64,000 bases of DNA from an uncultured Anaerolineales bacterium (GCA_964618295.1 CAZTWV010000012.1:929-64928); one strand, 5' to 3'; counted from the stretch's first letter, positions 45,691-64,000 are shown. Notes: generated by a model not told the origin, from the letters alone. Numbers and translations are program-made.

Positions 45691-45718
45691 TTGACGATGA
45701 TTTAAGCTCTGCTATAAT
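45691..45718 (+). promoter_or_regulatory. Sigma-70-type promoter of the TadE-like locus (TTGACG-16 nt-TATAAT)
   Basis: TTGACG 45691-45696 and TATAAT 45713-45718. A tandem CTAATCA CTAATCA (45723-45736) sits right after the -10, around the expected transcription start. Confidence 0.6.
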
Positions 45719-45750
45719 GAAGCTAATCACTAATCAACGGATGGGTTGAT

Positions 45751-63200: not shown

Positions 63201-64000
63201 TTGATGAATGCGTCAGCATTACTGCCGGAAGCCCGGATCTGACCTCCAGCGCTGGTGATTTTGCCACCATCTGCAGCACACCTCCCACCGTTAACACCTA
63301 TCCGGGAGGCAGCACCAACCCAGCAGATCCTGGTCGGCAGGTGATCTATAATTTCGGCACCCTGACCAACAGCGGTGCTTCGGATGTGAACCTGGTAGTG
63401 ACCTACCAGGCGGTTGTCCTCAACAACCTGGAAAATCAGAGCGGGGTAGACCTCAGCAACCAGGCGGTCTGGAGCTGGAGTGATGGTACTCTGGAAAATT
63501 CTGCGGATCAGGTCACTGTCCGGGAACCGGATCTGGAATTTTCAAAGGCAGTCAGCCCCCGGACGGCTTTACCCGGACAGATCGTGACTTTTACCCTGAC
63601 CGTGAATCATACGGCTGCCACCGAAACTCCAGCTTATGATGTGGTCTTGACAGACGTTATTCCTGATGGTTTGACCTACGTAGCGGGAACCCTGCAGCAT
63701 ATTAGCGGACAGGCACCAGATTCCCTGGATTACAGCAGCAGTCCACCCACACTGACCGTGGTCTGGGATGATCTGCTCAACAACGGTACGAACTCGGTGA
63801 TCGAATTTGATGTCACCCTCGATTCCACCCTGCGGAGGGGGGATTCAGTCAGAAACTCTGCTAACCTGGCCTGGACCAGCCTGCCCGAGGATGATTTTGA
63901 TCCACCGCTTTCGGACTATAATCCGCTCTCGGTGGAGAGGGATTACGATCCAGCCAGCGCGGTCAATATTTATGGATTGGAAGCAGCAGCGACCATCCGG
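57230..64000 (+). CDS. Giant surface adhesin, N-terminal 2,257 aa (3' end outside the window)
   Basis: This frame (the one containing ATG 57230) is open from ATG 57230 to nt 64000 (in-frame ATG also at 57269), so it is absent from the ORF track. It has a signal anchor (LVFALVSFFLALILVPVVIVFAATVPAE). Eleven ~140-aa two-Cys Ig-like repeats follow, then two SdrD-B/Cna-B-like domains (LGNRVWYDTDNDGIFD..., LGNLVWNDGDNSG...). DUF11-like domains come last (LEFSKAVSPRTALPGQIVTFTLTVNH). Confidence 0.85.
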   Translation, partial: MKVQFSRIQPGKKMPKILPNHRLVFALVSFFLALILVPVVIVFAATVPAEMNIQFTPIAIASGGTSTLKVSVFNLNANPLTNATWTDTFHPDIAIADPPNINVQNCGSYSLTDGAGGLIEAGDSSIKLTGATVPAQLPSGVPGECYVEVDVTSTTPGNLINSIPENHLVSETIDPDGGGSVPITNTTPASATLNVIGVESPSLSKAFAPNTVFVGQTSTLTINIFNNDQDYPLTEVTMFDELPTAGNEDIKVASPLSASLNGCGEGSGAELTDENGDPLAPDDTTIKLVNGTIAPDSNCTITVDVVSMVQGAYVNVIPKDAPLDGSIQTRQGVSNEDPADDQLNVQAFIIDKEFAETKIAAGEPTLVSIEIVNNATIDYTGAALNDILPEGLVFEPGSASLSCTDGSSTAAFAYSDDTNPNDTLEMTGGVLPAGTTCTITATAEALTSVTVGTYTNNIPIGALSTVEGATNHNLASADIEVDTLGITKDFAEVTIPSGGTSELTITISNPFSKDYTDADGGDPLLEDVLPAEFEFDTSVIPGLQGTGCTGDLSIGGTNNNTLFLDGGTLPANTVCTITATVKAESTGNPADPGDYVNEIAAGKINTEEGATNASKASDTISVQSLGLTKDFDPNTIPVGGTSTLTIEIINNGTDTFTGADLSDEITDTSFYFEAGTAQTTCIPNGVVDISADSQTISLTNGTIPPGGCTIIVDVTTDDNQLPTSYENIIEAGDLITDQGDTNPADASDIISVETVTITKSYGTGTISYPEVSTLTITISNPANGQALTNMSLTDTLPDDLVIATPANASTTCNDSTPPTPTLTAEEGTRVIELSDGSLAAGSGSCSIQVDVTALSETVSGDYPNTIGQGDLTSGPAGNGPTNGNTNTATLEVEALEVSKDFLYESFQAGDTSSTNPLTITLTNPTSLDYTNVNITDSLPTSPDTDLEFVLGTENTDCGGTVSLTGSSPPPYRTIGLAGGTLPANGSCTITVDVTTDTDATAGSYTNTIYPDDITTTVDGVDGPTIPEDVTADVETYPFQRGVEAAKSFTPSSIDFFDYDGDTSTLELEFTAPPDTDLTDFSFTDVLPDNGDGSVYLASPISANLSGCGANAELTDGSGNPLGPDDTTIQMINSTILKGETCTVSVDVTSNTGSTPGVIYTNTVTPDNVSNNEDRNPPGNLTANLTVTTPSTLTMAKDFDPNIVGPEGLSRLTITLENASTTELINVDLDDFLPGDTSDGVVIAANPNPTTTCDSGVITAAPGTQTLHMEDGTIPASDGTVNGICTINVNVQGKTTDGTNPATYTNTIPVANVVATLAGTPSTMNPQDPASDDLTVKDLDLEIVKGFDPVLVYGGADSEMSITLRNPNAEAELIDITFTDNMPAADMVLVDPPNFDPSDCGPDAELIRIDQSTFEFSGGYLAAGEECTITLNTNMTVNGNRTNTIPAEAVTTTNGATNKTPTDATLTNLASVSVSKSFEPNPIAAGLGSYSILTIEIRSTESVRITRLGLIDTLPAGLQVADHVSGPAPAPTNGCGGNLSAPVSATTIQLTDGELDIGFEKCSLTIPVTGAEPGQYTNQIPQGSITNDEGITNIQSTEDTLTLTPYSLGNRVWYDTDNDGIFDPAEVGISGVRVELYRDTNSNGVYDPGVDEAVEDGSGNARFEVTDPDGYYRFDDLGADDYLVLISGDNFDSGNPLEGYYSSGTTLADDGTISDSIGPDPDDDADNEDNGTTTATSGAVDYVSAQAVTLGPDQSEPTDDDDPTTNPETGEAANDQSNRTVDFGFYTITLGNLVWNDGDNSGAVNGSEAGIDGVDLELWTADQNTLLDTVTTGGGGGYSFTGLAEGNYIVRIPASEFQGTEPLRGFASSTGNGVPAPDGDLNTTDSDDNGSEVTPPRLGLGGYIQSAEITLTPGNEASFDNSTGTTSEPRIDFGVYPFPQQEKSFTGSDQVFTAGLDVAIGEILTYQVTFTVPPGAITGVTLTDTMDRGLVFDECVSITAGSPDLTSSAGDFATICSTPPTVNTYPGGSTNPADPGRQVIYNFGTLTNSGASDVNLVVTYQAVVLNNLENQSGVDLSNQAVWSWSDGTLENSADQVTVREPDLEFSKAVSPRTALPGQIVTFTLTVNHTAATETPAYDVVLTDVIPDGLTYVAGTLQHISGQAPDSLDYSSSPPTLTVVWDDLLNNGTNSVIEFDVTLDSTLRRGDSVRNSANLAWTSLPEDDFDPPLSDYNPLSVERDYDPASAVNIYGLEAAATIR
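57390..62040 (+). repeat. Eleven tandem ~420-nt coding repeats inside the adhesin gene
   Basis: Each unit starts with x(K)xFxPxxIxxGGTSTLTIxIxN, carries xDxLPxxL, and has a Cys pair ending in C(T/S)I(T/Q)VDV(T)...YxNxI. Divergence at DNA level is high, so these are old duplications. Confidence 0.75.

Follow-up and report, generated by a model that had tools for sequence, protein, structure and literature searches.

In a 64,000-nucleotide stretch of DNA from an uncultured Anaerolineales bacterium (GCA_964618295.1 CAZTWV010000012.1:929-64928), referred to here as the window and numbered with its first letter as 1, we identified a three-gene cassette at 53555-56858. It encodes a small exported protein (A), a fusion of an archaeal-type signal peptidase I (SPase I) with a DUF5305 region and an EAL domain, and a small exported RTX-repeat protein (R). 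Our best reading, which we hold with a probability of roughly 0.55, is that this is a dedicated-peptidase cassette, organized like the TasA, Tafi and AbpX loci, that carries a degenerate EAL sensor and lies next to a separable Tad-type neighbour. That these three genes form the functional unit is, in our judgement, slightly favoured by the evidence. Fibre formation and control by cyclic di-GMP (c-di-GMP) are the weakest steps of the reading.

A three-gene cassette conserved across Chloroflexota

The genes of the cassette are the following (aa, amino acids):

53555-53938 (+): A, small exported protein, 127 aa (A-family profile, AlphaFold2 model)
54033-56405 (+): fusion protein SPase I-DUF5305-EAL, 790 aa (Pfam, NCBIfam, AlphaFold2)
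56409-56858 (+): R, small exported RTX-repeat protein of the calcium-binding beta-roll type, 149 aa (Pfam/NCBIfam)

One genome per species was scanned for homologues of the fusion protein, yielding 80 loci, all of them from Chloroflexota bar one short contig from a metagenome-assembled genome (MAG) labelled Acidobacteria. Hidden Markov models (HMMs) made from the small flanking proteins were then run against 86 loci, where they matched the A family in 82 and the R family in 84; small proteins with special signals, which a preliminary description of this DNA had placed together with the peptidase, do flank it in the survey. Members of family A are ~120-130 aa long and those of family R ~130-155 aa. 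The A gene usually lies ~100 bp upstream of the peptidase gene and the R gene 0-30 bp downstream, often overlapping the peptidase stop codon; in the window it begins 3 nt past that codon. This synteny indicates that the conserved unit consists of A, R and, between them, the peptidase-DUF5305 protein, whether or not it carries EAL. At the distant loci L003 and L004 the bare triplet stands in unrelated surroundings.

The same three-domain architecture recurs in homologues P0002-P0036, at 31-88% identity. The EAL-bearing fusion is represented by ~48 species-level sequences, mostly from Anaerolineae and, apart from the MAG labelled Acidobacteria, all from Chloroflexota; its carriers are MAGs of Anaerolineales and Anaerolineaceae together with the cultured Ornatilinea apprima and Levilinea saccharolytica. 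A larger set of homologues, 500-630 aa long, comprises the peptidase and DUF5305 without EAL. These shorter forms occur in Caldilineaceae, Ardenticatenaceae, Chloroflexales, Thermomicrobiales, Dehalococcoidia and Ca. Villigracilis, and no other cytoplasmic domain was found in them. When the N-terminal 520 residues were placed in a neighbour-joining tree, the branching was star-like, lineages with and without EAL were intermingled, and only the 18-member clade around the window was cleanly EAL-plus; a single origin of the EAL fusion is not borne out by this topology. Where relatives have a name in the databases, it is 'signal peptidase I'.

The peptidase-EAL gene is split into two open reading frames (ORFs) at L022 (10097-12326; 323+425 aa) and L023 (9989-12320; 354+428 aa). 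Both loci are from long-read MAGs, and at L023 the ~700-aa TadE-headed genes described below (TadE-700) are fragmented as well, as a result of either frameshifts introduced by sequencing or decay of these loci.

The fusion protein joins a signal peptidase, DUF5305 and EAL

The 790-aa protein scores 56.5 bits against TIGR02228 (archaeal-type signal peptidase I; cut-off 51.85), 35.6 bits against Peptidase_S24 (cut-off 23.3), 33.2 bits against DUF5305 (PF17231; threshold 29, residues 302-511) and 218 bits against EAL, and PF17231 is precomputed in most of its homologues. Domain searches on all nine proteins encoded around the cassette, from 45751 to the window end, thus confirm both the S26B-type peptidase and the EAL assignments, and the fusion of an archaeal-type signal peptidase to an EAL domain, as initially described, is real. 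The label 'SipW-like' stands in part: the enzyme is of the archaeal type with SipW-type residues, but it lies below the cut-off of the SipW equivalog NF046067 (26.8 versus 190 bits). As had been claimed, it is the sole peptidase recognized by Pfam and NCBIfam among the nine proteins. None was found either in the 30 upstream ORFs scanned with Pfam, a scan that left out 10336-16457 and several smaller ORFs.

Four residues, S42 (in SMEP), H79 (in HR), D94 and D100 (both in GDNN.W.D), are invariant among the 26 members of one alignment and present in 46-47 of the 47 members of a larger one. We take them to be the Ser/His/two-Asp set of Sec11/SipW-type enzymes, and the peptidase side is predicted to be catalytically competent.

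An AlphaFold2 model of residues 1-525, built from a 46-sequence alignment (predicted local distance difference test, pLDDT, 84), shows four transmembrane helices (TM1-TM4): the peptidase fold lies between TM1 and TM2, a disordered basic loop between TM2 and TM3, and a beta-sandwich between TM3 and TM4, after which comes an alpha/beta module. The DUF5305 region consists of a helix at 177-205, strands at 209-408, a helix at 409-440 and the alpha/beta part at 454-514, with pLDDT mostly >90 in the sandwich and ~80-92 in the alpha/beta module. The full order of parts is therefore TM1, S26B peptidase, TM2, basic loop, TM3, DUF5305 sandwich, TM4, alpha/beta module and EAL (residues ~520-790). With the basic loop inside, the predicted topology places the peptidase and the sandwich outside the cell and the alpha/beta module and EAL domain in the cytoplasm. 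In Foldseek searches the peptidase part retrieved proteins of the S24/S26 fold (the lambda repressor C-terminal domain, SipA of S. pyogenes and SpsB), and the DUF5305 sandwich retrieved only generic beta-sandwiches (Af_0446, the TMEM106B luminal domain, ApaG). An SPC22/23-like fold for the sandwich was considered and rejected, as no chain of the signal peptidase complex appeared among the top 50 Foldseek matches.

A and R share a specific signal box

Unrelated in other respects, A and R each have an N-terminal hydrophobic helix that terminates in the box A-Φ-A-A-[AST]-N-T-V-P, followed by ..AG(E/D)G.G.ISGY in A and by.(T/S)R.D in R. The strict box, placed after a hydrophobic stretch, is present in 57 of 115 A proteins and 54 of 87 R proteins and in none of the 9345 other ORFs of the same loci, an enrichment far beyond chance. 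This exclusivity is the strongest argument that both proteins would be handled by one dedicated enzyme.

The three small proteins of the window, namely A, its paralogue A' and R, had at first been thought to carry TasA/SipW-like signals, a view that the model searches do not support. Neither Pfam nor NCBIfam, including Peptidase_M73 and TIGR04088 (presumed to be in the library), gave a TasA/SipW-signal match for any of them; the A and A' ORFs match no family at all in these collections. The shared box is instead specific to these proteins, recognized by no model and distinct from the TasA/SipW-cognate motif. As for the giant adhesin encoded downstream of R, to which the same type of signal had been ascribed, a partial look-alike ('VFAATVPAE') is there and the full box is absent. 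A comparable stretch occurs in the adhesin of L019 and not in those of L001, L002, L006 and L011. The adhesin was accordingly rejected as a conserved box-bearing substrate, the box being only partial in the window and lacking in the adhesins of most loci.

The AlphaFold2 model of A (30-sequence alignment, pLDDT 83) begins with a signal helix (residues 2-31); residues 32-46 are modelled at low confidence, and residues 49-125 fold into a six-strand beta-sandwich that has two conserved cysteines. Residues 32-46 form a conserved NTVP..AGEG arm, which is at once unstructured in the model and the most conserved motif of the protein. Against the PDB, Foldseek gave weak matches of the immunoglobulin (Ig)/fibronectin type III kind only (best E = 0.095); the 50 matches listed include no chain from TasA, AbpA or Tafi, and a PDB sequence search with A gave no match. 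Kinship with TasA, DUF1102 or camelysin was likewise rejected, as nothing beyond noise appeared in Pfam/NCBIfam at E up to 5. In view of these sequence and fold comparisons, A is not a demonstrable member of the TasA superfamily.

This absence of kinship bears on what would become of the two proteins if they are processed. They might be cut by the cassette peptidase and yet form no fibre, acting as small secreted or wall-associated proteins such as a calcium-binding sheath or matrix, or as signalling peptides. A is indeed far smaller than TasA, TafA and AbpX and has no fold match to them, and R is a calcium-binding protein of the RTX type. We nevertheless find this alternative doubtful: the characterized dedicated SPase I/DUF5305 loci all encode polymerizing subunits, and in the monomer model of A the conserved arm is disordered and precedes a small six-strand sandwich, which would be compatible with a strand-donation design.

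The EAL domain is probably a receptor rather than an enzyme

Under a published criterion, an EAL domain is intact when all seven positions corresponding to E175, N233, E265, E268, D295, K316 and E352 of RocR are kept (PMC2952852). The window's domain, which aligns to solved EAL structures with E = 1e-48, reads ENERDKQ at these positions: E175, N233, E265, D295 and K316 are retained, E268 is replaced by R and E352 by Q, and the domain is degenerate by this measure. Three of the four recognition residues are kept (Q161, R179 and D318), with D296 replaced by N, and the whole clade around the window shares the pattern ENERDKQ / QRND. In the numbering of the fusion protein, conserved EAL residues include E560, R564, N619, K703, E742 and Q759. 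Across the family, all seven catalytic positions are intact in 11 of 47 members, and the other 36 are degenerate through losses of several kinds.

The loss of catalytic residues makes a c-di-GMP receptor likelier than an enzyme, and we infer that the domain binds c-di-GMP without hydrolysing it. The preliminary description had drawn a parallel with LapD, in which a cytoplasmic EAL domain governs events outside the cell; with degeneracy in 36 of 47 members, that idea fits even better than was then apparent. We consider it unlikely that the domain is an active, membrane-localized c-di-GMP phosphodiesterase acting as a local sink, or a mere dimerization scaffold to which nucleotides are irrelevant. 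The EAL profile is matched strongly (218 bits), the first-metal-site residues E560, N619, E651 and D681 are all present along with K703, and the catalytic set is complete in those 11 relatives. However, the substitutions at E268, E352 and D296 place the window and its whole clade outside the intact class (PMC2952852), and the family has become degenerate by several different routes. The isosteric D-to-N and E-to-Q changes, with the equivalents of Q161, R179 and D318 kept, are moreover what would be expected of a domain that only binds its ligand.

The TadE/TadG proteins and the adhesin form a separable module

The cassette lies within nine genes that run on the + strand from 45751 to the window end, the 18-kb co-oriented block of the preliminary description. 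Besides the cassette, the block contains the following features:

45691-45718 (+): sigma-70-like promoter with extended -10 (TTGACG, 16 nt, TG-TATAAT; 11/12), preceding the TadE module
45751-46476 (+): TadE-like minor-pilin-type protein, 241 aa (PF07811, 46.5 bits; prepilin-type site G/QSFVEL)
46489-48072 (+): TadG-like protein with VWA domain, 527 aa (PF13400, 31.3 bits; VWA_2, 27.7 bits)
48152-50299 (+): TadE-headed modular protein, 715 aa, with Pro/Thr linkers and C-terminal 'WTPACPFDDPNWPC' (PF07811)
50342-50355 (+): terminator-like GC hairpin followed by a T run, 3' of the 715-aa gene (pattern match only)
50523-50909 (+): A', paralogue of A, 128 aa (A-family profile)
51031-53283 (+): TadE-headed modular protein, 750 aa, with Pro/Thr linkers, Cys motif 'WTPACPFDDPNWPC' and a weak PA14-like insert (PF07811)
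53444-53473: perfect 13-bp inverted repeat CCCCAACCTAACA...TGTTAGGTTGGGG, between the 750-aa TadE gene and gene A (pattern match only)
53476-53503: promoter-like site upstream of gene A (pattern match only)
56859-57229: AT-rich intergenic gap of 370 bp with A and T runs, before the giant adhesin gene
57230-64000 (+): giant repeat adhesin, >2256 aa, cut by the window end (Pfam/NCBIfam domains)

The four TadE/TadG-type N-termini reported earlier are all supported, three by PF07811 above its cut-off and one by PF13400, and the long Pro/Thr linkers of the 715-aa and 750-aa proteins were seen. The three TadE proteins carry class-III prepilin sites (G/A-XXXX-E-F/L) before the hydrophobic helix, sites that are presumably of the TadV type, and the TadG-like protein has a G/QAVVI site without the Glu. 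No A/R box is found in the TadE heads. The class-III sites point to a TadV-type aspartic peptidase and Tad machinery acting in trans, and not to a type I signal peptidase. TadA/CpaF, TadB/C, TadZ and TadV gave no match in the Pfam scan of the nine block and 30 upstream proteins, and a regular-expression search of the entire 64-kb window found no Flp-like class-III signal besides those of the three TadE proteins. Clusters of tad genes are usual in Anaerolineae (PMC4877987), and Tad is also found in Litorilinea (bioRxiv 10.1101/2025.08.19.671072).

TadE-type genes stand beside the cassette in 12 of the 86 loci, all from the window's clade, and the other 74 have no TadE gene within 10 kb. Within the clade the order is stable (TadE240, TadG/VWA, TadE-700, A', TadE-700, A, peptidase-EAL, R and, variably, an adhesin) and is kept in ~11 species-level genomes whose peptidases are 46-88% identical. 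The TadG/VWA orthologues hold an equal position in L002, L086, L087 and L088, and the 715-aa protein has >527 homologues. The TadE block also occurs by itself: L086 and L087 contain TadE240, TadG/VWA and TadE-700/A' pairs, the latter repeated, with cytochromes after them, L088 contains TadE238, TadG, TadE717 and a giant adhesin, and none of the three has the cassette within 10 kb. L088 is the syntenic site of the window, with which it shares an upstream MerR-B12 regulator, a hydrolase, a photolyase, an RNase T-like exonuclease and a thioredoxin-domain protein. These loci show that the two modules are separable. The A' genes accompany TadE-700 genes even where the peptidase is absent, and they are the one real link between the cassette and the TadE module. 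A was also considered as a relative of a TadE-700 domain, and this was rejected at a profile-profile probability of 0.1% in hhalign.

These distributions do not sustain the single composite Tad-TasA-peptidase system initially proposed. That the whole 18-kb block is one machine, in which the peptidase-EAL protein matures or releases the TadE/TadG proteins, the small proteins and the giant adhesin, now appears improbable. The constant gene order of the clade would speak for it, as would the interleaving of A' paralogues with TadE-700 genes, but most cassettes have no TadE gene nearby, and three loci, one of them the window's syntenic site, have the TadE block without the cassette. The TadE heads, too, bear class-III prepilin sites in place of the box, adhesins differ from locus to locus with even a partial box only in the window and L019, hhalign finds nothing in common between A and TadE-700, and terminator-like and promoter-like sites divide the block.

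Domains of the giant adhesin include 11 DUF7933 repeats, SdrD_B, DUF11 and isopeptide. The adhesins that follow R vary between loci, and the gene is accessory. Those of related loci (L002 13013-21640, L001 12921-21539, L088 12334-20532) end in a fused Sortase domain (PF04203; 74 bits in L002, residues 2735-2868), and the repeat family of the window's adhesin differs from theirs.

The TadE-700 proteins end in a short Cys-containing motif past the last Pro/Thr linker. It reads 'WTPACPFDDPNWPC' in both window copies (50200-50299 and 53180-53283) and in L086 (10001-12115), and 'PTWECVDDC' in both L087 copies (3555-5627 and 10001-12472). The motif could be a C-terminal sorting or cross-linking tag. 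A protein of ~700 aa, mostly with faint multihaem-cytochrome Pfam matches, is encoded just downstream in L001 (22000 onward), L086 (17887-20025) and L087 (12903-15011), so that this type of gene occurs with or without the peptidase cassette. ORFs of 697-757 aa occupy the same position (~13.0-15.5 kb) in L008, L013, L019, L022 and L023; if they are the same cytochrome gene, a stable insertion site would be marked.

Relation to known systems

In the Tafi system of Haloarcula, the processing of TafA requires a dedicated peptidase, TafD, whose gene neighbours that of the DUF5305 protein TafG (PMC11821415). Bacterial peptidase-DUF5305 fusions were already noted by the Tafi authors (PMC11821415; PMC12337348). 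A preprint on AbpX treats DUF5305 as an SPase I accessory with the architecture modelled here, reports an SPase I-DUF5305 fusion in Anaerolinea thermophila and mentions c-di-GMP enzymes as neighbouring genes only (bioRxiv 10.64898/2026.01.04.697558). All the DUF5305 literature that we found concerns TasA-like archaeal and bacterial fibres. Within the literature searched, coverage of which is incomplete, we found no description of an EAL domain fused to a signal peptidase and none of the A and R families. The EAL extension, the two families and their signal box appear to be new, and the pairing or fusion of SPase I with DUF5305 is known. The earlier statement that no characterized system has this composition must be qualified accordingly, since SPase I and DUF5305 pairs in TasA-like loci, and the Anaerolinea fusion, have been published (PMC11821415; PMC12337348; bioRxiv 10.64898/2026.01.04.697558).

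The Tafi and AbpX loci resemble the window in combining an archaeal-type SPase I with DUF5305 (an outer sandwich, a pair of transmembrane helices and an alpha/beta part in the cytoplasm) next to small exported proteins with unusual signals. In contrast to them, the window has the two proteins fused and extended by EAL, its A and R resemble TafA/E, AbpX or TasA neither in sequence nor in fold, and its signals are of the Sec type with an NTVP box and not of the twin-arginine (Tat) type. The tapA-sipW-tasA operon of B. subtilis shows the same succession of substrate, dedicated S26B peptidase and substrate, with Ser/His/Asp residues of the SipW/Sec11 type. Unlike SipW, which is without DUF5305 and EAL, the window's peptidase is not a SipW equivalog, and A and R are not Peptidase_M73/TasA proteins and have no SipW-cognate signal match.

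The LapD-LapG-LapA system of Pseudomonas is alike in that an inner degenerate EAL domain is connected through transmembrane helices to an outer domain that could control a surface-protein protease. The window locus differs in having no LapG (C93), no HAMP-GGDEF and no LapA-type retention module; the fusion protein scores 76.6 bits against the LapD model NF045673 (cut-off 1020), the protease is a signal peptidase covalently joined to the EAL domain, and the host phylum is described as monoderm (bioRxiv 10.1101/2025.08.19.671072). Like the Tad/Flp minor pilins TadE/TadF/TadG and modular pilins that carry grafted adhesin domains, the window's TadE/TadG proteins join a pilin-like head to large C-terminal modules, but their sizes of 715-750 aa with Pro/Thr linkers are unusual and their genes are interleaved with A'. 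The giant adhesin recalls, by domain content, GhlA of the filamentous chloroflexotan Litorilinea aerophila, a giant DUF11 bead-on-a-string filament (bioRxiv 10.1101/2025.08.19.671072), with DUF11-type Ig-like repeats and an N-terminal hydrophobic segment in common; unlike GhlA, it consists mainly of DUF7933, plus SdrD_B and isopeptide.

It is very unlikely that A is instead an uncleaved, membrane-anchored accessory subunit of the SPC22/23 kind, serving a general or housekeeping peptidase: its single N-terminal helix and small beta-sandwich would fit, two of 30 A-family members have faint Pfam SPC22 matches (best E = 0.045) and the relatives' database name is plain, but these matches are at noise level, the unrelated R has the same box at its helix end, where small residues of the -3/-1 type followed by N-T-V-P look like a common cleavage or recognition site, the strict phylum-wide synteny of three genes argues for a dedicated enzyme, and the analogous TafD is one experimentally (PMC11821415).

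A model for the cassette and its significance

In the mechanism that we propose for the dedicated-peptidase cassette, A, A' and R would be exported by Sec with signal peptides ending in the A-Φ-A-A-[AST]-N-T-V-P box. The signal peptidase domain on the outer face, beside the fused DUF5305 sandwich, would remove these signal peptides, releasing a ~95-aa Ig-like A with a flexible, conserved N-terminal arm and a ~115-aa calcium-binding beta-roll R. By analogy with TasA/TapA, Tafi and AbpX, A and R would most likely be major and minor parts of a surface fibre or matrix. The cytoplasmic EAL domain, having lost catalytic residues and kept most c-di-GMP contacts, is a probable c-di-GMP sensor that may couple the cellular c-di-GMP level to processing or assembly outside, in the inside-out manner of LapD, the direction of control being presumed. 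The TadE/TadG-headed proteins and the giant adhesin would be a neighbouring, separable adhesion module that relies on Tad machinery encoded elsewhere.

Joined into one, these steps describe c-di-GMP-gated cleavage of signal peptides, in which the EAL domain acts via DUF5305 so that A/A' and R, very small subunits of a class not yet described and marked by the NTVP box, are released into a new Chloroflexota fibre that cooperates physically with the Tad adhesins of the window's clade through A'. We offer this joint picture tentatively, with a chance well short of even. Several observations weigh against the regulated-fibre interpretation. A is unrelated to TasA, Tafi and AbpX proteins by sequence or fold, which leaves operon analogy as the argument for a fibre. 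Some family members, with 11 of 47 EAL domains fully intact at the catalytic positions, might hydrolyse c-di-GMP. Many relatives are without EAL, so that c-di-GMP control would be an addition to the cassette and no inherent part of it. The Pfam scan of the nine block and 30 upstream proteins revealed no diguanylate cyclase.

Surface proteins are controlled by c-di-GMP through transcription, riboswitches, secretion ATPases and the LapD/LapG protease switch. If our reading is correct, the fusion of a receptor to a signal peptidase would place a further point of control at signal-peptide cleavage, and DUF5305 would be the transmembrane relay from the cytoplasmic module to the peptidase. Such a device would occur in a phylum described as monoderm (bioRxiv 10.1101/2025.08.19.671072), for which the Lap solution is presumably impossible. 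The proposal that DUF5305 is an accessory of signal peptidases in TasA-like fibre loci, archaeal and bacterial, is itself recent (bioRxiv 10.64898/2026.01.04.697558). The A/R cassette would be an unannotated surface-matrix candidate throughout the phylum, with two cultured hosts, Ornatilinea apprima P3M-1 and Levilinea saccharolytica KIBI-1. Wastewater flocs and anaerobic digesters harbour filamentous Anaerolineae in abundance, and the adhesiveness of these bacteria there is of practical relevance (PMC4877987; PMC10746286).

Transcriptional layout and other genes of the window

The promoter that the preliminary description had judged good, at 45691, is a qualified case: it matches 11 of 12 positions with an extended -10 and is the top sigma-70-like site within 45400-64000, but the number of such sites across that region equals the shuffle expectation. 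Nor is the block likely to be transcribed as a single unit. The hairpins at 50342 and 53444-53473, the promoter-like site at 53476 and the AT-rich 370-bp gap before 57230 break up the 18 kb, which probably consists of several transcription units, predicted at 45751-50299, 50523-53283, 53555-56858 and from 57230 on. The repeat at 53444-53473, scored as a minus-strand terminator-like site, could be a terminator for either strand or a protein-binding site; together with the adjoining promoter-like site (53444-53503 in all) it suggests that the core cassette has its own transcription start. Two further hairpins lie in the gap at 56859-57229, at 56990-57012 (+) and 57127-57105 (-). An Rfam scan of the whole window, this gap included, gave no family at gathering score; no c-di-GMP riboswitch came up, the lone match being a chance-level small nucleolar RNA (E = 0.064). 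The A' ORF as listed spans 139 aa from a TTG at 50490, and comparison with homologues makes the ATG at 50523 (128 aa) the most likely start.

Elsewhere in the window, two adjacent FemAB-family genes at 5362-7531 come after genes for a sugar transferase and an epimerase; the group suggests modification of peptidoglycan interpeptides or of the cell envelope. A heliorhodopsin gene lies at 31764-32549 (-) (Pfam E = 2e-97), and within 10 kb of it are a photoreceptor-type MerR/B12-binding regulator and a DNA photolyase (34291-35757 (+) and 39377-40858 (+)). The group looks like a small light-related neighbourhood, and its regulator, hydrolase and photolyase are syntenic in L088.

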